Shown here: in pieces, positions 1-49,647 of the stretch
Position numbering within the stretch: the stretch's first letter is position 1
Layout of the letters: every line of letters starts with the position of its first letter
Assembly (NCBI GenBank): GCA_965243075.1
Contig: OZ251525.1
Span: forward strand, 2,144,348-2,208,347
Source of the DNA: Tepidiformaceae bacterium
Lineage (GTDB): Bacteria > Chloroflexota > Dehalococcoidia > Tepidiformales > Tepidiformaceae
Reading direction: 5' to 3'
DNA length: 64,000 nt
Position numbers and translations under genes: made by a program
Notes under the pieces: model-generated
The model's database searches: none
Seen by the model: only the letters and a program-made list of their open reading frames with translations
What the model was told of the DNA's origin: nothing

Positions 1-212
1 GCCTCGATGGCCGCGCCGTCGATGCCGAGCCGTTCGCGCAAGTAGCCCGCCAGCGCCGGAGCGCCGCCCGTGATCGCCTCCCGCAGTTCGCGCTGCCGCC
101 GTCCGATTTCCTCACGCTCCCCGCGCTCCCGCTTCTCCAGATTCTTGACGGCGAGCGACTGCTGCCACGCGCTGAAGGGCGCGCCCGCCCGCTGCAGCAG
201 CGCCTCATTCAT
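1..212 (-). CDS. hypothetical protein, N-terminal part only (gene runs off the left edge); fourth gene of the PP-loop/GHKL operon
   Basis: Hand translation of the minus strand from ATG 212..210 gives MNEALLQRAGAPFSAWQQSLAVKNLEKRERGEREEIGRRQRELREAITGG... The ATG overlaps the TGA (207..205) of the upstream gene (ATGAATGA). It is absent from the ORF track because it is open-ended. Confidence 0.45.
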   Translation of the reverse strand, partial: MNEALLQRAGAPFSAWQQSLAVKNLEKRERGEREEIGRRQRELREAITGGAPALAGYLRERLGIDGAAIE

Positions 213-999
213 CGTCGAACTCCGGCTCCAGCTCGGGGAGCGGGAAGAGTGGTTCGATGGCGGTGGCCGCGCGCGCCGGATCGTAGCCGTCGTCGTCCCA
301 AGCGCGGACGCCCGCCTCCACGAGCCGCCCGCGAATTTCCTCCGCGAGCGCGCGATGCTCCTCCGCATCATCGCCAAAGACCGTCGGGAACAGGGCGCAG
401 ACGCCGATGAGGCCGGCCACCTGCATGCTGCGGTCGCGTTCGACGGAGGGGAAGACATCGGGCGCGAGAAAGACGGTGAAGCGAATCTGGCCGCTGCCCT
501 GATCGGAGGCGACCCGCATACCGCCCTCGGGGAGCGCGCGGTCTTCGCGGAAGGACAGGATCGTCTCCCCCAGCGTCTTGACGGGGTAGGGCTGGCCACG
601 CGCCAGCCACCAGCCCCCGGGCATGTCGAGTGGAGCGCGTCCGCTCCAGAGGTCGTTCAGTCCGTCGGTTTCGAGCCGCACGTCGCGCATCGCCAGCAGC
701 CCCGGGATGAGGTAGACCTGCCCGTCGACCTCGTGCGGCTCCCAGCGCACCTCCATGCGGGGCTCGGCGCTCGTGTTGATGCGGGCCAACAGCGTCTTGG
801 GGCAGCGCAGCTCGATCGCCCAGCGGGCGGCGCCTTCCGCGAGCAGCCGCTCCAGCGCGGGGGCGCGCTCGATGCGGTGCTCGACGCGCGCGAGGCCGTC
901 GCGCAGGCGCACCTCGGGCCGGTAGGCGGCGTCGGGCCAGTCCAGCCGCGAGCCGTCCTCCACCAGCACCGGCAGCGCGTCCTCAGTCATCGTCGCCAT
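205..999 (-). CDS. hypothetical protein (third gene of PP-loop/GHKL operon), no recognisable domain
   Basis: ORF 205..1086(-) trimmed to the in-frame ATG at 999 (alternative 990), just downstream of the GHKL gene stop (985..983). Amino-acid composition is ordinary, unlike antisense ORF 70..1071(+). Confidence 0.6.
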   Translation of the reverse strand: MATMTEDALPVLVEDGSRLDWPDAAYRPEVRLRDGLARVEHRIERAPALERLLAEGAARWAIELRCPKTLLARINTSAEPRMEVRWEPHEVDGQVYLIPGLLAMRDVRLETDGLNDLWSGRAPLDMPGGWWLARGQPYPVKTLGETILSFREDRALPEGGMRVASDQGSGQIRFTVFLAPDVFPSVERDRSMQVAGLIGVCALFPTVFGDDAEEHRALAEEIRGRLVEAGVRAWDDDGYDPARAATAIEPLFPLPELEPEFDDE

Positions 1000-2917
1000 C
1001 CTTCCGCCGATTGCGGCGTCGCGCATCGATCTCCACGGCGTTGGGGTCGGCGATGGGATGCGCGAGCCTGATGGCCAGCACGCCATCGGCGGGCGGCACG
1101 AGCAGTTCGAAGGCGGCCTCCCCGCTCGCGGGAACCGTCCCCGACGGATGCGCGATCTCCTTCAGGCGCAGCCAGCGCGGGCCGAGCGGCTGCTCGCAGG
1201 TGGCATCCGAGCCGGAGGGCACGCGCACGCGCACGCCAACCATCTCCGGAAGCCCCTCGCCCTCGGGCATGCGCCAGACGACGCGCAGGGTGTCGAACTC
1301 GCCACGCCGGTTGCGTTCCGGCCGCACCGACGCCTTCACGCGGAACACCGTCCCCGCACTCGGCGAGGGGCCGCCGGTTCCGCCCCGCCGACGCGCTTTC
1401 CCCTCGTCCCGCTCGGGATGGTCCGCATCGGGGTCCGACTCCACCCTGGTTCCCGGCTCCTCGCCTTCGGGGCCCGGCGGGGGAGGCGGGGGCGGGGGCG
1501 GTTTGGGTTTCGCCTTGCGCAGCCCCACGACGAAGAAGTCGTCCGGTGTGAAGACGTTGCCGCGCTCGCGCTCGCCCGCAGCCTCGCGCAGCTGGTCGCC
1601 GATGACGCCCAGCAGCTCGCGCAGGCGCTTCCACCGGGAATCGCCCCCCCCCCCCTTGACAATAATGCGTTCACGATCCAGGCCGAGGTGCTCCGGGCCT
1701 TCGGCGTCGCGCACGAGCTCGTACAGTTCGCCCCGCTCGACCAGCACGACCGCGTCGAAGGGCCGGGAACCGCCAAAGTCGTTCACGCGCAGATGGGGCG
1801 CTTCGTTCGTGATCCACATGCCGTCGCGGTAGAGCTGGACGCGCGAGTCGTAGCCTTCGTTCTCCGTGCGCGGGCGGATGCGGATCGTGACGCCCTCGAC
1901 GCCGCTCGCGGACAGCTCGCGCCCGCTGTCGAAGCACTGCCAGGCGCGCCAGACCTGCTGGCCGGGGACGAGCGCGCCCCCACGACGGACACGCTGATCC
2001 CTGATGGAAACATGGCCCAGGATTCCCTCCAGCGCGCCACGGTCCACGACCGATTCCTCGCCGTCAGCGTCGCGCACGCGCACGACCATGCCATCCAGCG
2101 CGATGGCGGCCAGGAAGTGGGTGGCGGCCACGCGCCGGAGCGACCTGACAGCCTTCGCGGGATCGTCGCGGAAGTCGTTGAAGCCGGCGATGCAGACGAC
2201 GCTACCGGTGTCTTCGATGCGCGCCATCTCGTCCGCCAGCAGGGGCGGCGCGCGATCGGGGTACTTGTCGCCCCGCGCGAAGAGGCTCTGCTGTCCGGGG
2301 CGCAGCAGGTAGCCGTTGCCGTCGATACCCGTGTCGGGGGAATCGGGGGAACGGTGGGAGGCGAGCACGGCGTGACCGCTGGCGGCATCGTGCGGCGCTC
2401 CATTCGCGCGCGAACGGCCAGCGTAGAGCACGTAGCGCAGGTCGGAAGCGGCGAAGGCGGTGAGGTGGCCGACGCCGGTCGTGCCGCCGCCCGTCGACTT
2501 GTCCGTGTTGCCTTCGGTGAGCACGCGGTCAAGGCCCCCGGCGTCAAGGCCGACGCCGTTGTCGCGACAGAAGAGGAGGCGCACGCGCCCGCGTTCGAGC
2601 ACGCCGTTGATGCCCTCGATGGCGCGTTTCTCGCCCGCCCCGGGCGCGGAAGCGCGTTCGTCGCACACCGCCGTGAAGGCCTTCCGATAGGCGTCGATGC
2701 CGGGCAGGTCGGCCAGCGGGCGCTCGTCGATGGTGAAGCAGACCTCGGCGCGCTCGCGTTCGGCCTCGCGCGCGGCGTCGAGGCAATTCTGCAGGAGCTC
2801 GCGCACGATGGGCTCGGGCTTGCCGTCCCATTTGGACATGGCCAGCGAGGAGAAGCCCTGCGGCGATCCCGTTGCGGGGAAGATGAGGTCGGCGTCCATC
2901 TCAGTCCGTGCAGTCAC
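983..2917 (-). CDS. GHKL (Bergerat-fold, Hsp90/MutL/MORC-like) ATPase with a long uncharacterised C-terminal region
   Basis: N-terminal motifs are ELLQNCLDA (N box), CRDNGVGLD (G1) and GGTTGVGHLTAF (G2). There is a KPKPPPPPPPPPGP linker. The start is GTG 2917 (17-nt overlap with the upstream gene) or ATG 2899 (2 nt after the upstream stop). Confidence 0.75.
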   Translation of the reverse strand: MTARTEMDADLIFPATGSPQGFSSLAMSKWDGKPEPIVRELLQNCLDAAREAERERAEVCFTIDERPLADLPGIDAYRKAFTAVCDERASAPGAGEKRAIEGINGVLERGRVRLLFCRDNGVGLDAGGLDRVLTEGNTDKSTGGGTTGVGHLTAFAASDLRYVLYAGRSRANGAPHDAASGHAVLASHRSPDSPDTGIDGNGYLLRPGQQSLFARGDKYPDRAPPLLADEMARIEDTGSVVCIAGFNDFRDDPAKAVRSLRRVAATHFLAAIALDGMVVRVRDADGEESVVDRGALEGILGHVSIRDQRVRRGGALVPGQQVWRAWQCFDSGRELSASGVEGVTIRIRPRTENEGYDSRVQLYRDGMWITNEAPHLRVNDFGGSRPFDAVVLVERGELYELVRDAEGPEHLGLDRERIIVKGGGGDSRWKRLRELLGVIGDQLREAAGERERGNVFTPDDFFVVGLRKAKPKPPPPPPPPPGPEGEEPGTRVESDPDADHPERDEGKARRRGGTGGPSPSAGTVFRVKASVRPERNRRGEFDTLRVVWRMPEGEGLPEMVGVRVRVPSGSDATCEQPLGPRWLRLKEIAHPSGTVPASGEAAFELLVPPADGVLAIRLAHPIADPNAVEIDARRRNRRKDGDDD

Positions 2918-4151
2918 AGGATATCTCGCCGGTGGCGTAGCGGTTGCGCCCGGGGACGTCGCCCGTGGCGATGCGGTCGAAGCTGGGGCCGCTCAGGCCG
3001 AGGAAGCCGAAGCCGCCGCCGCTCACCGATTCGCGGCTGTAGCGGCGCTCCATGACGGCCCACCATTCGGCGTCGGAGGGAGCGCCGGGCACGCGCGCGG
3101 GGTCGGGCCGCGCGGCCAGCCGCGTGAGCGCGTTCGTGCCCTTCATGAAGCAGAACACGCAGTTGCCCGCGTTCTCGGGGATGTCGAGGTCGAAGTCGCG
3201 TTCGCGCCAGAAGGTCTCGACGGCGGCCTTGTCGAAGCCCCACTCCTCAAGGGGGAAGTAGGGGCGCTCGCCGGGGGGCTGGGTGCGGATGGAGCAGGCG
3301 CGCCCGCCCGCGCCCTCGGCGAGGAAGGAGCGCATGGCGATGCGGTCGATGCGCCTCGGCTCGTCGGCGCGCAGGCCGAGCAGGGCCACATAGCCGGCGG
3401 CGTCCGGTCCCCACAGGGGCGCGGGGCCGGGCGGGCCCGGCGGGCGCGGCGGCGGGGGCGCGTCGGTGTAGTCGCGCCAGCGCTGCGCTGCGCGGGAGGG
3501 AGGCCGCGCGGTCATGGCGGCGGCGCGGCGCAGGTAGGCGCCTTCCTCCTGGACGCCGCCGCGACGACGGTGAGCCTCCAGCGCCTGCTCCGGCCCGACG
3601 AAGGAGCGGTCCGCGTGGTGGCCGGCGTGACGCGGCCCCTCGCCCGTGCCGAACCATTCGGCGAGCAGGTCGTGGGCGGGGTAGAGCTTGAGCTTGGCGG
3701 TGCAGCTGCGCGTGTGGGGGTTGGGCAGCATCCCGTTCCAGGAGAGCATCTCCTCAAAGGCCTCGCCGCGGGAGCGGTAGCCGAGCGGGTCGTCCTCGAC
3801 GGGGTCGGCGCGCACCAGCCGGTAGGAGGCCTGGCGCACGTACATGCCACGCGAGGCGTCCTCGACGGTGCAGAACTCGTACCAGAGGACGGGCAGGCCG
3901 AAGTCGCGTTCGAGGCGGCGCTTGCATTCGCGGGCGAAGGCGTAGGTGCCGGGGTGTTCGGCGGTGGTGTTGGCGAAGAGGACGACGTCGCCGCGTTCGG
4001 GGCGCAGCAGGCCGGCTTCGGCGAGCAGGAAGGTCATGGCCGCCGAGGAGCGTCCGCCGGAGAACCTGACGACACGGGGAAGGGCCTCGTGCTCCCGATC
4101 ACGCCAGGCGATGCGCTTCATGCGCCGGTTCGGCCCGATGGGAGCGCGCAT
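2901..4151 (-). CDS. PP-loop ATP pyrophosphatase, PAPS-reductase/DndC/IbrA-like adenine-nucleotide alpha-hydrolase
   Basis: VRFSGGRSS is a variant of the SGGxDS PP-loop. RSCTAKLKL and GNCVFCFMKG motifs are typical of PAPS-reductase-family proteins. There is an internal Pro-rich insert, PPPPRPPGPPGPAP. This is the first gene of the operon. Confidence 0.75.
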   Translation of the reverse strand: MRAPIGPNRRMKRIAWRDREHEALPRVVRFSGGRSSAAMTFLLAEAGLLRPERGDVVLFANTTAEHPGTYAFARECKRRLERDFGLPVLWYEFCTVEDASRGMYVRQASYRLVRADPVEDDPLGYRSRGEAFEEMLSWNGMLPNPHTRSCTAKLKLYPAHDLLAEWFGTGEGPRHAGHHADRSFVGPEQALEAHRRRGGVQEEGAYLRRAAAMTARPPSRAAQRWRDYTDAPPPPRPPGPPGPAPLWGPDAAGYVALLGLRADEPRRIDRIAMRSFLAEGAGGRACSIRTQPPGERPYFPLEEWGFDKAAVETFWRERDFDLDIPENAGNCVFCFMKGTNALTRLAARPDPARVPGAPSDAEWWAVMERRYSRESVSGGGFGFLGLSGPSFDRIATGDVPGRNRYATGEISCDCTD

Positions 4152-4162
4152 CTCGCCGACCC

Positions 4163-4168
4163 AGTATA
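4163..4168 (-). promoter_or_regulatory. putative -10 box TATACT for the PP-loop/GHKL operon (near-leaderless)
   Basis: An AT-rich hexamer in a GC-rich intergenic region, with 11 nt between it and ATG 4151. Confidence 0.4.
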
Positions 4169-4210
4169 GGCGTCGGGCGCGCGTCGCGCCATTCGGGGCG
4201 CGGCATGGCC

Positions 4211-4216
4211 TATCAT
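4211..4216 (+). promoter_or_regulatory. putative -10 box TATCAT for Panacea-toxin pair 1
   Basis: TATCAT is followed by GGAGG 7 nt before ATG 4241. The same architecture is repeated at 5248 (CATACT) and 58277 (TATCAT) in front of the other Panacea genes. Confidence 0.4.
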
Positions 4217-4240
4217 GGACGCACGCCCGGAGGTTCCGCC

Positions 4241-4795
4241 ATGCGCTTCGTGTTCGACGAACGCCGCGCCGCCCAAGCCGCCGCGCGCCTGCTCGACCGG
4301 CACGGCGGCACGATGCCCTGGCTCAAGCTCGTCAAGCTGCTCTACCTCGCCGACCGCGTGGCCCTCGTCGAGGGCGGCCGTCCGATCACGGGCGACCGCT
4401 TCGTCTGCGTGCGCCACGGCCCCGCCCTCGCCCGCGTGCTCGACCTGATCAAGGACGACTGCCCCGCCGGGGACTCCGTCTGGCACGGCTACGTCGCGCG
4501 CAAGCGCTTCGACGCCTGCCTCGTCGGCGACACCGAATCGGAACGATTGTCGGACTTCGACCGCGACGTGCTCGACGGCATTTCCGAAACCCATGGCTGC
4601 CTGAAGGAATGGGACGTGGTCGCCCGTACGCACGCCTTGCCGGAATGGAAGGATCCCGGCGATACCATCATTCCCATCGAACCCGAGGACGTCCTGCGCT
4701 ATTCCGGCTACTCGGACGAGGAAGTCGAGTCGGTCGTGGATGACATCGGCGCCTTTTACTCGCTCCACCTCCTGCTGACCACGCCAGCCAAGTGA
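4241..4795 (+). CDS. Panacea (DUF4065, SocA-like) domain antitoxin-type protein, copy 1
   Basis: MRFVFDERRAAQAAARLL...WLKLVKLLYLADRVALVEGGRPITGDRFVCVRHGPAL matches the DUF4065/Panacea pattern (KLLYxaD...G.pitG..f....GPv). A GGAGG SD is present. The stop overlaps the next gene start (GTGA at 4792..4795). Confidence 0.8.
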   Translation: MRFVFDERRAAQAAARLLDRHGGTMPWLKLVKLLYLADRVALVEGGRPITGDRFVCVRHGPALARVLDLIKDDCPAGDSVWHGYVARKRFDACLVGDTESERLSDFDRDVLDGISETHGCLKEWDVVARTHALPEWKDPGDTIIPIEPEDVLRYSGYSDEEVESVVDDIGAFYSLHLLLTTPAK

Positions 4796-5226
4796 CGGAC
4801 CAACGCGACTTCCGCATCAGCCCGGGCGATACGTTCTTCAACCTGCTGGACCCGATCCTGAACCTGCCGAAGCCGCACCTCTGGATCGTGCTCAACGATC
4901 CCGCCGGGAGCGGGCGGGCGGCGCTGGCGAACATCACAACGCATAGCGTGGAAACCCGCCACCGGTGCAGCGCACAGTGCCTGATCGTGCGCCACGGCGA
5001 GCACCCCTTCGTGGAAGAAGGGCATGATTCGTGCGTGCGCTACGCGGAATTCCTCTATCCGCTGGCGACGATCACGCGCGCGGCGGAGCATCCCCATACC
5101 GAGCGTCGCGAGCCGCTCAACCCCGAACTGCTTGCCCGCATCCAGCTCGGCATCTTCGATGCGCCTCTCGCGCCCGACGACGTGAAGGACGCGGTACGCG
5201 CGACGCTCGGCCAAGGCGCGCCGTAG
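4792..5226 (+). CDS. putative toxin partner of Panacea antitoxin (family not recognised), copy 1
   Basis: Translationally coupled (GTGA) downstream of the Panacea gene. Ordinary composition. It is a paralog of 5859..6251, sharing HLWI, GEHP and the ELLARIQLGI...GQGAP C-terminus. Confidence 0.6.
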   Translation: MTDQRDFRISPGDTFFNLLDPILNLPKPHLWIVLNDPAGSGRAALANITTHSVETRHRCSAQCLIVRHGEHPFVEEGHDSCVRYAEFLYPLATITRAAEHPHTERREPLNPELLARIQLGIFDAPLAPDDVKDAVRATLGQGAP

Positions 5227-5278
5227 CGCTCCGGCGCGCGCTTGCGCCATACTGGACGCACGCACCGGAGGTTCCGCC

Positions 5279-5878
5279 ATGCGCTTCGTGTTCGACGAAC
5301 GCCGCGCCGCCCAAGCCGCCGCGCGCCTGCTCGACCGGCACGGCGGCACGATGCCCTGGCTCAAGCTCGTCAAGCTGCTCTACCTCGCCGACCGCGCGGC
5401 CCTCGTCGAGGGCGGCTGGCCGATTACGGGCGACCGCTTCGTCTGCGTGCGCCACGGCCCCGCCCTCGGCCGCGTGCTCGAGCTGATCAAGGACGACTGC
5501 CCCGCCGGGGACTCCATCTGGCACGGCTACGTCGCGCGCAAGCGCTTCGACGCCTGCCACGCTGGCAACACCGACGACGGGTGGCTGTCGGAGCACAACA
5601 GGGGCATTCTCGACGGCGTTTTCGAGACCTACGGCTGCCTGAAGGAATGGGACGTGGTCGCCCGTACGCACGCCTTGCCGGAATGGCAAGACCCCGGCGA
5701 TACCATCATTCCCATCGAACCCGAGGATGTCCTGCGCTATGCCGGCTACTCCGAGGAGGCCATTGGATACGTCGCGGAGCAGGCCGAAGCGTCCTACAGT
5801 CTGCACACGACGCTGGAGCGCATTGGCAGGGAGAGGAGGCAGAAGCTTGAGCACGCCCATGTCGCTGCGGCCCGGTGA
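5279..5878 (+). CDS. Panacea (DUF4065) domain antitoxin-type protein, copy 2
   Basis: Near-identical N-terminal ~165 aa to copy 1, with a different C-terminal tail (…SYSLHTTLERIGRERRQKLEHAHVAAAR). Confidence 0.8.
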   Translation: MRFVFDERRAAQAAARLLDRHGGTMPWLKLVKLLYLADRAALVEGGWPITGDRFVCVRHGPALGRVLELIKDDCPAGDSIWHGYVARKRFDACHAGNTDDGWLSEHNRGILDGVFETYGCLKEWDVVARTHALPEWQDPGDTIIPIEPEDVLRYAGYSEEAIGYVAEQAEASYSLHTTLERIGRERRQKLEHAHVAAAR

Positions 5879-6251
5879 TACCTTCTGGGGCATCGACAGA
5901 CAGCACCACCTCTGGATCGCGCTGACCGTTCCCACACCGGATGGCAGCGTTACCGTGGCCAATTTCACGAGCCACCATCCTTCCCGGAAGGCATCCTGCG
6001 GCGAGCACTGCACGGTCGTGAACCCCGGGGAACATCCCTATCCCAAACGTCCCTCCTGCATCTTCCATGAAGGCATTCGGGTCGAAACCCAGCAGGACAT
6101 CCTGGGAGGCATTGAGCGTCCGTTCCGGAGAGGCGATCCCCTCTCCCCCGAGCTGCTGGCCCGCATCCAGCTCGGCATCATCGACTCCCCCGATACGCCC
6201 CCGGCCATCAAGAACGCCATCCGCGCGGCGCTCGGTCAGGGCGCGCCGTAG
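5859..6251 (+). CDS. putative toxin partner of Panacea antitoxin, copy 2
   Basis: ORF 5727..6251 trimmed to ATG 5859 (MSLRPGDTFWG...), overlapping the Panacea 3' end by 20 nt. Homologous to 4792..5226. Confidence 0.6.
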   Translation: MSLRPGDTFWGIDRQHHLWIALTVPTPDGSVTVANFTSHHPSRKASCGEHCTVVNPGEHPYPKRPSCIFHEGIRVETQQDILGGIERPFRRGDPLSPELLARIQLGIIDSPDTPPAIKNAIRAALGQGAP

Positions 6252-6296: not shown

Positions 6297-7367
6297 CTAC
6301 GGCAGCAGGCGCTCGACCACGTCGAGGGCGGCGGCGACGTCGGCGCGCGTGAAGTGGCCCAGGTGGCCCACGCGGAAGATGCGCCCGCGCAGGGACTGCT
6401 GCCCGCCGCCGAGGATGACGCCGTGCTCGTCGCGCGCGCGTTTGGCGATGGCCGCGCCGTCCACGCCCTCCGGCCAGCGCACCGCCGTCACCGTGTCGGA
6501 GGCGAAGCGCTCGTCGCGCGGGAACAGCTCGAGACCCATGCCGCGCACGCGCTCGCGCGTGTAGCGGGCGACCCCGGCGTGGCGCGCATGAACGCCCTCG
6601 AGGCCCTCGGCCAGCAGCGCCCGGAAGGCCGCGTCGAGGCCGTAGAAGATGGAGATCGCGGGCGTCCAGGGCGTCTGGCCGCTGGCGAGCGAAGCGCGGG
6701 CGCGCGCGGCGTCGAGGTAGAAGCGCGGCATGGACGCCTGCGCGTTGGCCGCCCAGGCGCGCTCGCCCAGCCACAGGAAGGCGAGGCCGGGCGGCACCAT
6801 CCAGCCCTTCTGCGAGCCGCTCACGAGCACGTCGACGCCCCAGCGCTCCGCCGGGCAGGGGATGGAGCCGACGCTGCTGACGCCGTCCACGATGAGGAGC
6901 GGGCCGCGTTCGCGCACGACCGCCGCGATGGCCTCCAGCGGGTTGGTCACGCCCGTGGAGGTCTCGTTGTGCGTGACCAGCACGGCCTTCACGGCGGGGT
7001 CCGCGTCGAGGCGGCGGGCGAGCTCGTCGGGGTCGGCGGCGTCCCCCCATTCCACCTCGTAGCGCGCCACCTCCGCGCCGTGAGCCTCGGCGATGGCGGC
7101 GAGGCGCTCGCCGAAGACGCCGATGGTGACGGCCAGCACGCGGTCGCCCGGGCTGAGCGTGTTCACGATGGCGGCCTCGAGCCCGCCCGTGCCCGAGGCG
7201 GTGAGCGTGAGCACGTCGCCGGAGACGCCGAAGACATGGTTGAGGCCGTCCGTGACGCGCCGCACGATGGCGGCGAATTCGGGGCCGCGATGGTTCATCA
7301 TGGGAGCGCCGACGGCCTCGAGCACGTCGTCGGGGCAGGGGGTGGGGCCGGGGATGCGCAGGTTCAT
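6297..7367 (-). CDS. class V aminotransferase (serine-glyoxylate / alanine-glyoxylate aminotransferase-like)
   Basis: ORF 6297..7754 trimmed to MNLRIPGPTPCPDDVLEA... Motifs TASGTGGLEAAI, NETSTGV and SGSQKGWMVPPGL (PLP Lys) are present. Confidence 0.85.
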   Translation of the reverse strand: MNLRIPGPTPCPDDVLEAVGAPMMNHRGPEFAAIVRRVTDGLNHVFGVSGDVLTLTASGTGGLEAAIVNTLSPGDRVLAVTIGVFGERLAAIAEAHGAEVARYEVEWGDAADPDELARRLDADPAVKAVLVTHNETSTGVTNPLEAIAAVVRERGPLLIVDGVSSVGSIPCPAERWGVDVLVSGSQKGWMVPPGLAFLWLGERAWAANAQASMPRFYLDAARARASLASGQTPWTPAISIFYGLDAAFRALLAEGLEGVHARHAGVARYTRERVRGMGLELFPRDERFASDTVTAVRWPEGVDGAAIAKRARDEHGVILGGGQQSLRGRIFRVGHLGHFTRADVAAALDVVERLLP

Positions 7368-7443
7368 GGCTCTTCCCGCCAGCGGTGGTGCGCCGATTCT
7401 CGCGCAGACGGCGGCTACGGGCATGATCGGGCATGATGGGCGC

Positions 7444-8826
7444 ATGGGCGGCGGCGACCCGGCCTCCCCGCTTCGCGCCCTCCCCGGCGTCGAAACCGTG
7501 CTCGCCGGGCTGCGCGGCGGCGGGCATCCGCACGCGCTCGCGCTGGAGGCGGCGCGCATGGCCATTGAGCGCGCCCGCGAGGCCGTGCGCGCCGGCGAAC
7601 CCGCGCCCCCGACGGTGGCCATCGCGGCGGAGGCGGAGGCGATCCTGCGCGGGCTCGCGCGGCCCTCGCTGGGGCGCGTGGTGAACGCCACGGGCGTCAT
7701 CCTGCAGACGAACCTGGGGCGCGCCCCCCTCGGCGAGCGCGCCATCGCGGCCATGGCCGAGGCCGCGCGCGGCTACTCCAACCTCGAATTCGACCTGGCC
7801 GGGGGAACGCGCGGCTCGCGCCACGAGCACGTGCGCGACCTCATCCGCCGCACGACGGGCGCGGGGGACGGCCTCGCCGTGAACAACAACGCCGCCGCCC
7901 TGCTGATGGCGCTGCGGGTGTTCGCGCGCGGGCGCGAGGTGATCGTCTCGCGCGGCGAGGCGGTGGAGATCGGCGGGCGCTTCCGCATCCCCGACGTGCT
8001 GCGCGAAAGCGGCGCGCGGCTGGTCGAGGTGGGCACGACGAACCGCACCTACGCCGCCGACTACGCCGAGGCGCTGGGCGACGAGACCGCCGCCATCCTG
8101 CGCGTGCACCGCTCCAACTTCGAGGTGACGGGCTTCACGGCGCGGCCCGAGGCGTCCGAGCTGGCGGCGCTGGCGCACGCGCACGGCGCGCTCCTGCTCG
8201 ACGACCTCGGCAGCGGCTGCCTCGTCGAAACCACGGACTACGGCATCCCCCACGAGCCCACCGTGCGCGAAAGCCTGCGCGCGGGCGCAGACCTCGTGCT
8301 GTTCAGCGGGGACAAGCTGCTGGGCGGGCCGCAGTGCGGCGTCATCGCCGGGCGGGAGGCGCTGGTGGACGAGCTGCGGCGGCATCCGCTGGCGCGCGCC
8401 CTGCGCGTGGACAAGCTCACCATCGCCGCCCTCAACGCCACGCTCGCCGCCTACCTCGCGGGCGCGGAACGCGAGGAAATCCCCGTCTGGCGCATGCTGG
8501 CGCTGGACGAGCCGCAACTGCGCCCGCGGGCGGAGGCGTGGGCGCGGGCGGCGGGCGAACGCGGGCGCGTGATCGCATCGCGCTCCGTGGTCGGCGGAGG
8601 CGCGGCGCCAGGCGCGGGACGGCCCAGCTGGTGCGCGGCCCTGCATCCCGAGGGCGGCGCGGAGCGGCTGACGCGCGCCCTGCGCGAGGCCGGCCCGCCC
8701 ATCGTCGCGCGCATGGAGAACGGCGAGACGCTGCTCGACCCGCGCACCGTGGACGAGCGCGACGACGCGCACGTGGCCGCCGCCATCGCCGCCCTCACCG
8801 CGCCCGCCACGCACGGCGGCCCGTGA
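7444..8826 (+). CDS. selA: L-seryl-tRNA(Sec) selenium transferase
   Basis: GVILQTNLGRAPL, VSRGEAVEIGGRFRIPDV, VGTTNRTY, RVHRSNF and FSGDKLLGGPQCGVIAG (PLP Lys) match SelA. An alternative in-frame ATG lies at 7423. Confidence 0.85.
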   Translation: MGGGDPASPLRALPGVETVLAGLRGGGHPHALALEAARMAIERAREAVRAGEPAPPTVAIAAEAEAILRGLARPSLGRVVNATGVILQTNLGRAPLGERAIAAMAEAARGYSNLEFDLAGGTRGSRHEHVRDLIRRTTGAGDGLAVNNNAAALLMALRVFARGREVIVSRGEAVEIGGRFRIPDVLRESGARLVEVGTTNRTYAADYAEALGDETAAILRVHRSNFEVTGFTARPEASELAALAHAHGALLLDDLGSGCLVETTDYGIPHEPTVRESLRAGADLVLFSGDKLLGGPQCGVIAGREALVDELRRHPLARALRVDKLTIAALNATLAAYLAGAEREEIPVWRMLALDEPQLRPRAEAWARAAGERGRVIASRSVVGGGAAPGAGRPSWCAALHPEGGAERLTRALREAGPPIVARMENGETLLDPRTVDERDDAHVAAAIAALTAPATHGGP

Positions 8827-13471: not shown

Positions 13472-16204
13472 GGCGCCGCGCGGCGCCTCGTCATCCTCGA
13501 TTCGCACGGCATCCTCTACCGCGCCTTCTTCGCGCTGGGGTCCGCGCCCAACCCCATGATGACCAGCCGCGGCGAACTCACCTACGCCACCTACGGCTAC
13601 GCCGAGTCGCTGCTGCGCGTGTACGACCAGCTCCGGCCCACGCACCTGTGCGCGGCCTGGGACGCGGGCGGCAAGACCTTCCGCCACGAGGCGCGCGCGG
13701 ACTACAAGGCCACGCGCCGCGAGACGCCGGAGGAGCTGCCGCCGCAGATGGAGCGCGTGCGCGAGCTGCTCGACGCCTTCGCCATCCCCGTCCACGAAGC
13801 GCCCGGCTTCGAGGCCGACGACGTGGCCGGCACCATCGCCGCGCGTACCGCCGCCGACGGCATCGAGACCTGGATCGTGACGCTGGACACCGATTTCGTG
13901 CAGCTCATCCGCCCCAACCTCAGCCTCTTCATGTTCCGCCCCTACCAGCGCGACACGGTCATGTACGACATGGCGGCGGCGAGCGAGCGCTGGGGCTTCA
14001 GCCCGCACCACATGACCGATTTCAAGGCGCTGCGCGGCGATTCCAGCGACAACATCGCCGGCATCAAGGGCATCGGCGACAAGACCGCCGCCAACCTCAT
14101 CCGCCAGTTCGGCCCCATCGAGGAGCTGTTCGCGCGGCTCGACGAGGTGGCGTCGAAGTCGGTGCGCGCGAAGCTGGAGGGCCAGCGCGAGGACGCGCTG
14201 GAGAACAAGCGCCTCATCACCATCCGCACGGACGCGCCCTGCGACTTCGACCTCGCCGCCTGCGAGGCGCGCGCCTACGACCGCGAGCGCGTGGTCGCCC
14301 TCTTCCGCGAGCTGGAGTTCCGCAGCCTCATCGACCGCCTGCCCGAACCGGCGGACGGCGACGCCGCGTCCCCCGCCGTCGCCGAGCCGCCCCCCGCGGG
14401 CGACTACGCCACCGTCACGGACGAGCGCGGGCTGCGCGCGCTGGCGGAAACGCTGCGCGCGTCGGACGGATTCGCCGTCAGCGCGCTGTCCACGGCGGGC
14501 GACGGGGCGCATCCGCTGCTGCTGGGGCTGGCCTTCGCCGACGCCCCCGGACGCGCCTGGTACGTGCCCCTCGGCCATGCGCCGCGGCTCGACGACGGCG
14601 ACGCCGGACAGGCGCCGCTGGCCGCCGTGCGCGAGACGCTGGGCCCGCTGCTGGCCGACCCCGCGCTGCCGAAGACGGCCTACGGCGCGAAGTACCTGCT
14701 GCACCAGTTCGCGCGCGCGGGCATGGCGCTCGACGGCGTCGTGGCCGAGACCAGCCTCATGGCCTTCCTGCTGGGCGAGACCTCGCAGACGCTGGCCAGC
14801 CTCGCCACCGAGCGGCTGGGCGTGGAGCTGCGCCCCGTCACGGCGCTCACGGGCACGGGGCGCAAGGCCGTCCCCCTCGCGCAGGTGGACCCCGAAGCCG
14901 CGGGCGAGCTGGCCTGCCAGCAGGCCGACTTCCTGCTGCGCCTGCGCCCGATGCTGGAGGAGCAGCTGCGCGAGCGCGGCCAGTGGGCGCTCTACGAGGA
15001 GCTGGAGCTGCCCCTCGTGCCCGTGCTGGCGGACATGGAGGCGGCGGGCGTGGCCATCGACACCGCCGTGCTGCGCGACATCTCCACCTCGCTCGCGGGC
15101 GAAATCGACATCGCCGAGCGCGCCGTGTACGAGCACGCCGGGCGCGAGTTCAACATCGGCAGCCCCCAGCAGCTGAGCGACGTCCTCTTCAAGGAGCTGG
15201 GGCTGCCGCCCACGCGCCGCATGAAGCAGGGCCACAGCACCGACCAGCGCGCCCTCGAGGGGCTGCGCGAGGCCCACCCCGTCGTCGAGGCCATCTTCGC
15301 CTGGCGCCAGCTGACCAAGCTCAAGTCCACCTACCTCGACGCCCTGCCCGGGGCCGTCTCCCCCGACGACGGGCGCATCCACACCGACTTCCAGCAGAAC
15401 GTGGCCGCCACGGGGCGGCTCAGCAGCGTCAACCCCAACCTGCAGAACATCCCCGTGCGCACCGAGCAGGGCCGCGACATCCGCCGCGCCTTCGTCGCCC
15501 AGGGCCACGACGACGCCCGCTACGTGGCCGCCGACTACTCCCAGATCGAGCTGCGCGTGCTCGCCCACCTCAGCGGCGACCGCGGCCTCATCGACGCCTT
15601 CCTCGCCGACGCCGACATCCACCAGGCCACCGCCGCCAGCGTCTACGGCGTGGCCCCCGACGCCGTCACGCGCCAGATGCGGGACACGGCCAAGATGGTC
15701 AACTTCGGCATCGCCTACGGCATGGGCGCCTTCGGCCTGAGCGAGCGCACGGGCCTCACGCGCGAGGAGGCGGGCGCCTTCATCGACGCCTACTACGCCA
15801 ACTTCCCCGGCATCAAGACCTGGCAGGACGAGGTGCTCGCCTCCACGCGCGAACGCGGCTACGCCGAAACGCTCCACGGGCGGCGGCGCTACCTGCCCGC
15901 CATCCACAGCCGCAACTTCCAGGCGCGCGCCGCCGCCGAGCGCGAGGCCGTCAACATGCCCGTACAGGGCACGGCGGCGGACATCATCAAGGTGGCCATG
16001 ATCCGAATCGCCGCCGCCGCCCGCGAGCGCGAGCTGCGCAGCCGCATGATCCTGCAGGTGCACGACGAGCTCATCTTCGAGGGCCCGGCGGACGAGGCGG
16101 ACGAGGTGGCCTCGCTGCTGGCGGAGGTGATGCCCGCGAGCCTGGAGCTGGCGGTCCCGCTGAAGGTGGACCTGAAGCGCGGCCGCAACTGGGCCGAGCT
16201 GTAG
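13460..16204 (+). CDS. polA: DNA polymerase I
   Basis: 5'-nuclease N-terminus (LVILDSHGILYRAFFA), and polymerase motifs DYSQIELRVLAHLS, RDTAKMVNFGIAYG and LQVHDELIFE. The GTG start lies only 6 nt after TATAAT, so the mRNA is probably leaderless. Confidence 0.95.
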   Translation: MSAGGAARRLVILDSHGILYRAFFALGSAPNPMMTSRGELTYATYGYAESLLRVYDQLRPTHLCAAWDAGGKTFRHEARADYKATRRETPEELPPQMERVRELLDAFAIPVHEAPGFEADDVAGTIAARTAADGIETWIVTLDTDFVQLIRPNLSLFMFRPYQRDTVMYDMAAASERWGFSPHHMTDFKALRGDSSDNIAGIKGIGDKTAANLIRQFGPIEELFARLDEVASKSVRAKLEGQREDALENKRLITIRTDAPCDFDLAACEARAYDRERVVALFRELEFRSLIDRLPEPADGDAASPAVAEPPPAGDYATVTDERGLRALAETLRASDGFAVSALSTAGDGAHPLLLGLAFADAPGRAWYVPLGHAPRLDDGDAGQAPLAAVRETLGPLLADPALPKTAYGAKYLLHQFARAGMALDGVVAETSLMAFLLGETSQTLASLATERLGVELRPVTALTGTGRKAVPLAQVDPEAAGELACQQADFLLRLRPMLEEQLRERGQWALYEELELPLVPVLADMEAAGVAIDTAVLRDISTSLAGEIDIAERAVYEHAGREFNIGSPQQLSDVLFKELGLPPTRRMKQGHSTDQRALEGLREAHPVVEAIFAWRQLTKLKSTYLDALPGAVSPDDGRIHTDFQQNVAATGRLSSVNPNLQNIPVRTEQGRDIRRAFVAQGHDDARYVAADYSQIELRVLAHLSGDRGLIDAFLADADIHQATAASVYGVAPDAVTRQMRDTAKMVNFGIAYGMGAFGLSERTGLTREEAGAFIDAYYANFPGIKTWQDEVLASTRERGYAETLHGRRRYLPAIHSRNFQARAAAEREAVNMPVQGTAADIIKVAMIRIAAAARERELRSRMILQVHDELIFEGPADEADEVASLLAEVMPASLELAVPLKVDLKRGRNWAEL

Positions 16205-48813: not shown

Positions 48814-49647
48814 ATGACCTACGCCCGACCGGAGCTGCTGGCCGAACCCGACTGGCTCGCCGACCACCTCGACGACCCCGCCGTGCGCGTCATCGACTGC
48901 GCGGCGCTGGAGGCCTACCGTCGCGCCCACATCCCCGGGGCCGTGCGCCAGCCCGCGCACACCTACGTCAAGGAGGCGGGCGCGCGCGAGGGCGGCGCGG
49001 GCACGTTCGTGATGCCGCCGGACGAGTTCGCGGCGCTCATGGGCGGGCTGGGCGTGGACGCCGATACGACGGTGGTGGCCTACGACGACAACAACGGGCT
49101 GGTGGCGGCGCGCCTGTGGTGGGCGCTGGCCTACTACGGGCACGAGCGCGCGAAGGTGCTGAACGGGGGCTGGCACCGCTGGCTCACGGAGGGGCGGCCC
49201 GTCACCTTCCACGCCACGCGGGCGGAGCCGCGCGCGTTCGAGGCGCGCCCCGTGCCCGCGCGCCATGCGAGCGCGGACGACCTGCTGGCGGAGCACGGGT
49301 CGGCGTCGTGCGCGGTGCTGGACGTGCGCAGCGACGGCGAGTGGGACGGCACGAACGCGCGCGGCAACCGGCGCGTGGGGCACGTGCCGGGCGCGCGCCA
49401 CCTGGAGTGGACGCGGCTGGTGGAGCAGGCGGACACGCGCCGCTTCCTGCCCGCGGCGGAGATGCGGGCGCTGCTGGACGAGGCGGGCGTGACGGCGGGG
49501 GCGCGCGTCATCACCTACTGCCAGGGGGGCATCCGCGCGGCGCACACGGCCTTCGCGCTGGCGCTGCTGGGCCACGACGACGTGCGCGTCTACGACGGCT
49601 CCATGTACGAGTGGGCGAACCGCGACGACACGCCGCTGGAGGTCTAG
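48814..49647 (+). CDS. thiosulfate/3-mercaptopyruvate sulfurtransferase (tandem rhodanese)
   Basis: Two rhodanese modules. Active-site loop is ITYCQGGIRAAHT. Confidence 0.85.
   Translation: MTYARPELLAEPDWLADHLDDPAVRVIDCAALEAYRRAHIPGAVRQPAHTYVKEAGAREGGAGTFVMPPDEFAALMGGLGVDADTTVVAYDDNNGLVAARLWWALAYYGHERAKVLNGGWHRWLTEGRPVTFHATRAEPRAFEARPVPARHASADDLLAEHGSASCAVLDVRSDGEWDGTNARGNRRVGHVPGARHLEWTRLVEQADTRRFLPAAEMRALLDEAGVTAGARVITYCQGGIRAAHTAFALALLGHDDVRVYDGSMYEWANRDDTPLEV

Follow-up and report, generated by a model that had tools for sequence, protein, structure and literature searches.

The window analysed here is a stretch of 64,000 nucleotides from a Tepidiformaceae bacterium (GenBank assembly GCA_965243075.1, contig OZ251525.1, positions 2,144,348 to 2,208,347), and it opens on an operon of tightly packed minus-strand genes that we call g1 to g4. 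We propose that this operon encodes a two-module DNA sulfur-modification system, which most likely would write phosphorothioate (PT) linkages into the DNA backbone. Under this proposal, g1 would be the sulfur-inserting enzyme, and the remaining trio, built around a GHKL ATPase, would form the targeting partner in place of the P-loop ATPases of known PT systems. From homology and gene neighbourhood, we give this complete reading a probability of about one half. We are highly confident that the four genes form a real, mobile and conserved unit for nucleic-acid modification or defence, and we consider it probable that g1 inserts sulfur into DNA whatever the role of the trio. The features of the operon are as follows.

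2901..4151, minus strand: g1, 416 amino acids (aa), PP-loop ATP pyrophosphatase; alternative start at 4121
983..2917, minus strand: g2, 644 aa, GHKL (Bergerat-fold) ATPase with a long C-terminal region; alternative ATG start at 2899
205..990, minus strand: g3, 261 aa, beta-rich N-terminal part and C-terminal helices; PDC-M33B homologue
1..212, minus strand: g4, the first 70 codons of a probable DUF6339-family protein of about 280 aa, the remainder of which lies beyond the left edge
4152..4204, no strand assigned: divergent intergenic region, 53 bp between g1 and the first Panacea gene

The open reading frame (ORF) list and the junction sequences agree with the earlier note on this DNA, which had described four packed genes, overlapping or nearly abutting, in a unit that is cut by the left edge. 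The g1 stop codon (TGA, 2903-2901) is followed after a 1-nt spacer by an in-frame ATG at 2899, and a g2 start at the GTG at 2917 would give a 17-nt overlap. The second junction reads ATGACTGA at 990-983, where the g2 stop (TGA, 985-983) meets g3, which has ATG codons at 990 and 999, and the third reads ATGAATGA at 212-205. For g3, the start at 990 is favoured by a database protein of 261 aa that is 100% identical over 99% of the query; a longer reading from an ATG at 1086 is unsupported. The start of g1 is uncertain by 10 codons, as its closest homologue (92% identity) begins at the equivalent of 4121. Pro-rich linkers, also claimed earlier, are seen in the window translations. The GC content is 70-76% across the region, and the flanks are not distinct. 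The 53-bp intergenic region at 4152..4204 presumably holds the operon promoter. It contains a TATACT hexamer on the minus strand (4168-4163), and a promoter and terminator scan found no sigma-70 consensus promoter or terminator at the 5' end of g1.

Evidence that these genes belong together comes from their co-occurrence. A g1 profile scan of 185,579 species genomes returned 122 relatives, of which 80 were kept, and a g2 profile scan of metagenomes added 29 further loci. When the four genes were sought by tblastn in 111 related loci (given here as L numbers), all four were present in 95, with gene order and strand almost invariably conserved and with overlaps of 4 bp; three loci are permuted. 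Most exceptions are explained by contig ends: ten of the 16 are cut in this way, L099 is probably both permuted and end-cut, and L085 may be likewise. In L072 there is a gap of the right size where g3 is expected. Only L013, L055 and L070 appear truly incomplete, the last of these having g1 alone. The earlier note had made its proposed system depend on such co-localization in other genomes, and it is amply observed.

Two of the permuted loci, L096 and L102, have the order g2-g3-g4-g1-desulfurase (the last gene is described below), and L082 carries g2, g4, g1 and g3 over 8 kb. Thus, g1, with the desulfurase where there is one, and g2-g4 behave as two blocks. In the first two relatives, exactly four same-strand genes are followed by unrelated genes; one of these loci is syntenic with the window and the second is flanked by gatB and a thiL-like gene, which indicates that the unit consists of four genes and occupies different chromosomal sites. 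The 150th-best g2 relative among 1.84 billion representative proteins (37% identity) is still preceded by a 427-aa gene and followed by genes of 294 and 296 aa, a resemblance of size and order only.

The cassette occurs in about a hundred metagenome-assembled genomes from at least six phyla.

Chloroflexota: Dehalococcoidia, Tepidiformaceae
Gemmatimonadota: Longimicrobiales
Acidobacteriota: Thermoanaerobaculia, Ca. Multivorans, Bryobacterales
Actinomycetota: Ca. Poriferisodalis, Aldehydirespirator, Spongiisociaceae, Hopanoidivorans cymbastelae
Verrucomicrobiota: Opitutales
Proteobacteria: Gammaproteobacteria

The taxon names and three metagenome accessions point to hosts that are almost only sponge symbionts. 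Specifically, accessions MKWU, LXNI and LXNJ belong to the metagenomes of the sponges Aplysina, Petrosia and Sarcotragus (Horn et al. 2016), and sponge metagenomes, including those from which these contigs derive, are reported to be enriched in DNA phosphorothioation genes (PMC5099237). Identity across phyla is 43-92% for g1 and 26-57% for g2-g4, a pattern that argues for horizontal spread of the cassette.

By its motifs and predicted fold, g1 is a member of the PP-loop ATP pyrophosphatase superfamily. It carries SGGRSS at residues 31-36, directly after the strand at 26-30 of its structural model, as the PP-loop of this superfamily does, followed by R148-x-C150-T-x-x-L-K, C331-x-x-C334 and a C-terminal C412-D-C414-T-D. 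The three motifs on which the PP-loop call was originally based (SGGRSS, RSCTAKLKL and GNCVFCFMKG) hold up well: their core residues are at least 97% conserved among 91 g1 homologues, in which conservation is 100% for C150, C331 and C334 and 97-98% for C412 and C414, and 67 positions are at least 97% identical. An AlphaFold2 model built with 62 homologues (pLDDT 83, pTM 0.88) returned PP-loop enzymes as all of its high-ranking Foldseek matches (NcsA, TtuA, APS/PAPS reductases, the GMP synthetase ATPPase, CysD and LarE), with weak scores (best E = 6.9e-3, TM 0.3-0.4). The combination of CxxC and CxC recalls the CC...CxxC ligands of the iron-sulfur (Fe-S) cluster in APS reductase.

No Pfam or NCBIfam model matches g1 at curated cut-offs. 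Pfam PAPS_reduct (PF01507) reaches 18.5 bits against a cut-off of 22.5 over residues 27-81 (profile positions 3-52 of 175), and 17.4 bits with the L002 homologue. The SspD model of PADLOC matches at 1.4e-8 over residues 130-170 only, some 40 residues around RSCTAKLKL (profile positions 64-105 of 277), and the BrxP model at E = 0.08. DndC gives no g1 match in PADLOC or NCBIfam, and the NCBIfam matches are just two stray ones to uncharacterised PRK13795-type models, far under their cut-offs (E 0.03-0.04). The NCBIfam models for CysH, APS reductase and tRNA thiolases, any of which would have spoken for a metabolic enzyme, do not match, and sequence and profile searches of the PDB with g1 gave no relevant match. 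A direct hhalign comparison with DndC from a P. aeruginosa plasmid (E = 0.0033, probability 9.7%, 113 columns) aligns the PP-loop and RxCTxxLK motifs only, pairing LPxVVxFSGGRSS of g1 with LPWIVGYSGGKDS of DndC, and RSCTAKLKL with RWCTDRLKI. The weak model scores and this two-motif alignment place g1 in a distant, unmodelled branch of the PAPS-reductase/DndC/SspD superfamily.

More distant relatives of g1 occur as stand-alone PAPS-reductase-family proteins of about 300 aa, with 33-38% identity to the C-terminal catalytic half of g1 (aa 253-352). They are found on non-mobilizable plasmids of E. coli and Salmonella (about 90 kb) and on 52 IMG/VR viral contigs, and one such gene lies between the genes for thymidylate synthase and dihydrofolate reductase on a Bosea plasmid from a sponge. 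The g2-g4 genes are absent from all 52 viral loci and from the two plasmid contexts examined. From the g1 searches, the cassette is not evidently phage-borne, and no plasmid-borne full cassette was found among their matches.

The decisive evidence comes with the partner genes of variant cassettes, which narrow modification or defence in general to the specific hypothesis of DNA sulfur modification. In a sister clade found via g2, whose g1 proteins share 35-42% identity with ours, the extra DNA after g1 is a full-length cysteine desulfurase gene (Pfam Aminotran_5 1e-88; PADLOC DndA 2e-148 and SspA 3e-148; in NCBIfam it falls among the IscS, DndA and NifS models). A DndA/SspA-type desulfurase lies directly 3' of g1 in 12 non-redundant loci, including the permuted L096 and L102, and divergently upstream in one further locus. 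In L094 and L095, a DUF262/GmrSD_N gene is inserted between the desulfurase and g2. Related DUF262 genes, which make up the largest cluster of recurrent cassette neighbours, directly follow g4 or precede g1 in 12 more loci and lie at most 2.6 kb away in two others; the loci with such a gene within the operon or immediately beside it number 13. A DndB gene stands between g1 and g2 in L004 (Pfam 7e-26, PADLOC 3e-17), and another adjoins the cassette in L104.

Genes for enzymes associated with PT-dependent restriction also recur. Relatives of NF045808, the NCBIfam 'phosphorothioated DNA-binding restriction endonuclease' (213-284 bits against a cut-off of 180 for the three proteins scanned), were located by tblastn at most 6 kb from the cassette in 15 loci, nine of which have the gene within 500 bp. 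Furthermore, a TIGR04095 dnd_restrict_1-like enzyme (1e-95) is encoded downstream, at most 4 kb away, in 12 loci, and a DndD-like ATPase (1e-29) is a distal neighbour in nine, often beside the dnd_restrict_1-like enzyme. In total, at least one PT-linked partner gene is present at 40 loci. The window has none, and to that extent the earlier statement that DndA and DndB partners are absent is correct; for the family as a whole it does not stand, given the DndA/SspA-type desulfurase, DndB and DUF262 genes of the variant cassettes.

Two other neighbours have turned up beside variant cassettes. One is a 176-aa ORF between g1 and the DndB gene of L004 (11291-11821), which has no family match and was found by tblastn in none of the other loci among L001-L113. 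The other is a recurrent downstream gene for a protein of 610-760 aa with repeated DNA-binding modules that resemble the RNA-polymerase alpha-CTD and sigma-70 region 4, present at L032 (14851-16686, starting at the g4 stop), L100 (9177-11459), L102 and L105. This protein may be a regulator or other accessory of the system.

The second module is likewise a recognizable set. In g2, the Bergerat motifs E40/N44/D47, D119/G121/G123 and G145/G148/G150 are invariant among 35 homologues, and a g2 profile matches the Hsp90 N-domain in the PDB (3ied, E = 1e-3) and, weakly, MutL and MORC3, which bears out the earlier GHKL assignment from three ATP-binding motifs. The Pfam HATPase_c gathering score is not reached (no match for g2 of the window; 15.5 against 26.4 bits for the L002 homologue), and a sacsin-type ATP-binding domain of NCBIfam also scores under its cut-off (0.0065). 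The g2 family extends to 640 clusters at 50% identity, with E up to 1e-3, among 1.84 billion representatives.

The earlier note had matched g3 and g4 to nothing. There is indeed no Pfam match for g3 in 37 members, but g3 proves to be a homologue of PADLOC PDC-M33B, and g4 a homologue of PDC-M33C and a probable member of DUF6339. PDC-M33A matches g2 (5e-16 over aa 20-450 in the window; 9e-33 for the L095 homologue), PDC-M33B matches g3, weakly in the window (0.004 there, 8e-6 for L002 and 6e-9 for L095), and PDC-M33C matches g4 of L095 (3.6e-9). Matches to A and B thus fall on adjacent genes in the window, and matches to A, B and C on the L095 homologues. The AlphaFold2 model of g3 (pLDDT 90.7) is beta-rich with C-terminal helices, and its Foldseek matches in the PDB are only FN3/cytokine-receptor-like beta-sandwiches at TM 0.24; judged by this model, g3 has no real structural relative there. 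Sequence and profile searches of the PDB returned nothing meaningful for g3 or g4.

Full-length g4 is 278-280 aa in the first two relatives, where it is the last gene of the unit, and the N-terminus of the window g4 resembles the full-length g4 of L001-L082 when judged by eye, with no alignment. We provisionally assign the g4 family to DUF6339 because two homologues exceed the Pfam gathering score of 23.2 bits in profile comparisons (L104, 32.3; L105, 30.7). The L095 protein reaches 22.4 bits (profile positions 8-174), and several g4 clades score nothing against this model. The 70-aa window fragment alone has no match in Pfam, PADLOC or the protein database. Comparison of g4 with DndE revealed no similarity (E = 0.13).

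Some members of these families show deviations. Proteins P0232-P0238 (about 410-420 aa, one of them from the L004 genome) are 48-55% identical to g3, but over only about half of its length, and may represent a fusion or paralogue of the g3 domain in another context. An in-frame TAG interrupts g4 in two Acidimicrobiia loci, L075 (13976-14899) and L076 (5553-6491). The stops are at different alignment positions, replacing Q and E of the relatives, and are independent nonsense mutations or sequencing errors; g4 may accordingly be dispensable or decaying in those genomes.

The trio also exists without g1. Plasmids from Ligilactobacillus salivarius, Lactococcus lactis, Paenarthrobacter ureafaciens and, probably, Deinococcus actinosclerus carry it as a g2 relative of about 650 aa (23-26% identity) followed by a gene for about 287 aa and a gene annotated 'DUF6339 family protein', with no PP-loop gene. 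In three of these four cases a DNA methyltransferase gene lies within a few kb, and the Lactococcus copy is near AbiG and AlwI-type restriction genes instead. The neighbours recorded for the plasmid trios comprise a type I methylase with its S subunit, an MmeI-type fragment with a methyltransferase, Dcm with a type II endonuclease, and a cytosine methyltransferase with Vsr. The g1 family, by comparison, is accompanied by the trio in 96 of 99 testable loci. The dependence is asymmetric: g1 almost never occurs without the trio, and the trio does occur without g1. This asymmetry fits a targeting module that serves interchangeable modification enzymes. A parallel is offered by the DndDE core, which can recruit cytosine methylases (PMC10853773).

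Gene order, domain classes, co-occurrence and accessory genes are matters of observation. We infer the substrate, the chemistry and how the work is divided as follows. Using ATP, g1 would adenylate a backbone phosphate of DNA, an activation that has been reported for TdpC and is assumed for DndC, SspD and BrxP. In a second step, g1 would exchange the adenylate for sulfur, supplied as persulfide by a cysteine desulfurase, and the universally conserved cysteines C150, C331-x-x-C334 and C412-x-C414 might relay this sulfur or hold an Fe-S cluster. In the sister clade, the desulfurase would be the one encoded directly after g1, and in the window it would be a housekeeping IscS, SufS or NifS. Housekeeping IscS/SufS often replaces a dedicated desulfurase in known PT systems (PMC12914056; PMC12839542). 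The trio, a GHKL dimer with g3 and g4, would act as an ATP-driven DNA clamp that selects sites or presents them to g1, taking the role of the P-loop ATPase partners DndD-DndE, SspB-SspC and BrxC. In other bacteria, methyltransferases seem to be the enzymes that this trio serves. Restriction would be optional and would come from variable neighbours, namely the DUF262/GmrSD-type, PT-DNA-binding HNH and dnd_restrict_1-type enzymes, none of which is encoded in the window.

Several observations weigh against this proposal. The g1 protein fails every curated model of a PT writer, with no DndC match, an SspD match of 40 residues and a PAPS_reduct score under the cut-off, and in 60% of the loci, the window included, the flanks that were inspected contain no accessory gene linked to PT. 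It would also have to be explained, for example by a difference in motif specificity, how nucleases that depend on PT can sit next to a PT writer; a precedent for this arrangement is a BREX type 4 cluster with mcrA (PMC12914056). The trio, which is a stand-alone PADLOC candidate and lies beside Abi genes on the lactococcal plasmid, could be an effector instead of a targeting module. Finally, a Foldseek search of the g3 model against the PDB identified no DNA-binding or nuclease fold.

If the trio is the effector, then g1 and the desulfurase might together be a self-sufficient PT writer like TdpC, and the trio a restriction arm comparable to TdpAB, DndFGH or SspE, whose action on DNA the sulfur mark would block or steer. 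Such a complete modification and restriction unit would explain the independent spread of the minimal four-gene cassette, and it is in keeping with a trio that is found without g1 in defence contexts and is catalogued by PADLOC as a stand-alone candidate, with modules that swap order as blocks (L096, L102 and L082) and with the lone g1 of L070. However, a writer of this kind would be expected to occur often alone or with other partners, and g1 is instead with the trio in nearly all testable loci, as noted above. Furthermore, no nuclease or effector motif was recognized in g2-g4 by Pfam, profile and fold searches, and the variable, dedicated nucleases beside 40% of the cassettes suggest that restriction is supplied from outside. 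Because the dependence asymmetry runs in the opposite direction and no effector fold is visible in the trio, we rank a restricting trio below a targeting trio and regard it as possible but rather unlikely.

A different objection concerns the reaction itself. The g1 enzyme could carry out another ATP-dependent reaction, whether base thiolation, some other adenylate-mediated modification of DNA or RNA, or ATP consumption as part of an effector, such that the product would not be PT. The distance of g1 from all characterised PT writers leaves room for this idea, as do the tRNA thiolases NcsA and TtuA ([4Fe-4S] enzymes that use persulfide sulfur) among its nearest structural matches, and the 67 near-invariant positions point to a distinct, constrained active site. 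Nevertheless, the accessory genes are specific to DNA PT (DndB, NF045808 and dnd_restrict_1) and are not those that accompany tRNA modification, the patchy occurrence of the cassette and its horizontal spread between phyla are not what housekeeping tRNA enzymes show, and a desulfurase that adjoins g1 argues against a sulfur-free role. We therefore consider an alternative product unlikely. That g1 functions in sulfate assimilation as a PAPS/APS reductase, or in tRNA thiolation, and has unrelated neighbours, as its weak PAPS_reduct match and the APS/PAPS reductases among its structural matches might suggest, is extremely improbable and effectively refuted by the four-gene co-occurrence, given the strict operon association of g1 with g2-g4, which holds in several phyla although the genomic site varies, the lack of a match to the corresponding NCBIfam models and the absence of sulfate-assimilation neighbours (those in the window are toxin-antitoxin genes, an aminotransferase and SelA).

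Four PT systems are established, namely Dnd, Ssp, Tdp and BREX type 4 (PMC12914056), and the proposed sulfur-writing cassette shares features with each of them. With SspABCD/SspE it has in common a PP-loop enzyme of the PAPS-reductase superfamily (SspD is the best defence model for g1) and an ATPase partner, and its variants pair g1 with an SspA/DndA-type desulfurase and have a DUF262-type gene in the operon, in the position of SspE. Some SspD proteins also have a Cys-rich region (PMC12839542). The cassette differs in that SspB/DUF4007 and the P-loop ATPase SspC/DUF6079 are lacking (neither matches g2-g4) and a GHKL ATPase and two other families are present instead. Moreover, g1 is about 130 aa longer than SspD, has inserts of its own and matches it over about 40 residues instead of along its full length.

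The similarities to DndABCDE are the PP-loop and RxCTxxLK motifs that align with DndC, the DndA-type desulfurase and DndB of variant cassettes, the dnd_restrict_1-like and DndD-like genes near some of them, and the proposed logic of a writer combined with an ATP-driven DNA-scanning pair. However, no DndC, DndD or DndE model matches g1-g4, and the cassette ATPase is of the GHKL rather than the ABC/SMC-like type. Similarly, BREX type 4 has a PT writer of the g1 superfamily that needs an ATPase, a desulfurase that is sporadic, and possibly a PT-binding McrA-type nuclease in the BREX cluster (PMC12914056). The cassette in contrast has no PglZ, BrxC, BrxL or DUF4007 fusion, no BREX protein is matched by g2-g4, and BrxP matches g1 only at the E-value of 0.08 given above. 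TdpABC, said to have been described by An et al. 2025 in Nat Chem Biol, is a compact PT system in which TdpC alone reportedly suffices for writing; the compactness is shared, and its adenylated DNA intermediate is the mechanism that we assume for g1. No PDB entry described as Tdp is among the listed sequence or fold matches of g1, a result that comes from searches in which the TdpC sequence itself was not compared.

PDC-M33 is the closest known relative of the second module: its A, B and C models correspond, in gene order, to g2, g3 and g4, and that trio, too, is found on plasmids. It differs in having no PP-loop component, and the enzymes near it on plasmids are methyltransferases in three of four cases rather than a sulfurtransferase. 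As for CysH, g1 has neither a model match nor the sulfate-assimilation neighbours. A recent survey for new PT systems required a P-loop NTPase beside a PAPS-reductase-type gene (PMC12914056), and a search of that design would miss this GHKL cassette. In the accessible literature, no GHKL ATPase is mentioned for Dnd, Ssp, Tdp or BREX type 4, and literature searches on PDC-M33, DUF6339, PAPS reductase with GHKL, and phosphorothioate with GHKL found nothing relevant. The impression recorded at the outset, that no described system combines a PP-loop enzyme, a GHKL ATPase and two further genes, has thus met with no named or published counterexample: g2-g4 are catalogued so far only as an uncharacterised PADLOC candidate, and no description of the four-gene cassette was found.

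If the cassette does write PT, it would constitute a fifth PT architecture, this time with a GHKL ATPase, and would provide the first functional handle on PDC-M33 and DUF6339. It would also define an extremely conserved PP-loop family that is without a database model. Furthermore, the cassette would contribute to the enrichment in phosphorothioation genes that sponge metagenomes are reported to show, and would provide a marker for horizontal exchange, and perhaps for self/non-self discrimination, in one of the densest known microbial consortia. More speculatively, and with rather little confidence, we suggest that the sulfur mark could differ chemically or mechanistically from the known PT pathways, or could be PT made via a new GHKL-clamp mechanism, with the trio as a general, exchangeable director of sulfurtransferases and methyltransferases, and that the cassette might have spread horizontally among unrelated sponge symbionts as a niche-specific epigenetic or immune marker.

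The surroundings of the operon in the window include elements of a defence neighbourhood. On the plus strand, 4205-6251 holds two tandem pairs of genes, in each of which a gene for a SocA_Panacea-domain protein (196 and 199 aa) precedes a small ORF without a family match (144 and 174 aa). The N-terminal halves of the two Panacea proteins are nearly identical, and a PanA-type toxin-antitoxin pair seems to have been duplicated here recently in tandem. Both pairs carry the SocA_Panacea antitoxin domain, in agreement with the divergent toxin-antitoxin neighbours described previously. The close relative L001 has an insertion between the Panacea pairs and the aminotransferase, comprising an Eco57I-type gene and a 247-aa gene, so that the Panacea spot is a variable islet. 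The defence-island context that had been claimed for the cassette accordingly has some substance in the two Panacea pairs and the L001 insertion, but it is modest in this window.

Beyond the Panacea pairs lies a minus-strand gene for a BhcA-like class-V aminotransferase (6297-7754), 2 kb from the cassette and syntenic with SelA. We considered this protein as the missing DndA and rejected it for its BhcA-like character and its synteny with SelA. As called mechanically, the aminotransferase (minus) and SelA (plus) ORFs of 6297-8826 have about 660 bp in common. Given that the SelA domain starts only at residue 196, translation of SelA probably begins near 7680. Neither a tRNA-Sec nor a SECIS element was detected in the window. 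At the other end of the cassette, the g4 stop in L001, the closest relative, overlaps by 4 bp (14739-14742) the start of a same-strand serA-type phosphoglycerate dehydrogenase gene, and the cassette may be co-transcribed with this housekeeping gene there; the same arrangement probably exists just beyond the left edge of the window. Elsewhere in the window, ARAGORN calls an 85-nt tRNA-Gly(tcc) at 49173-49257 that does not reach the Rfam tRNA gathering score, and the other three tRNAs were found by both methods.

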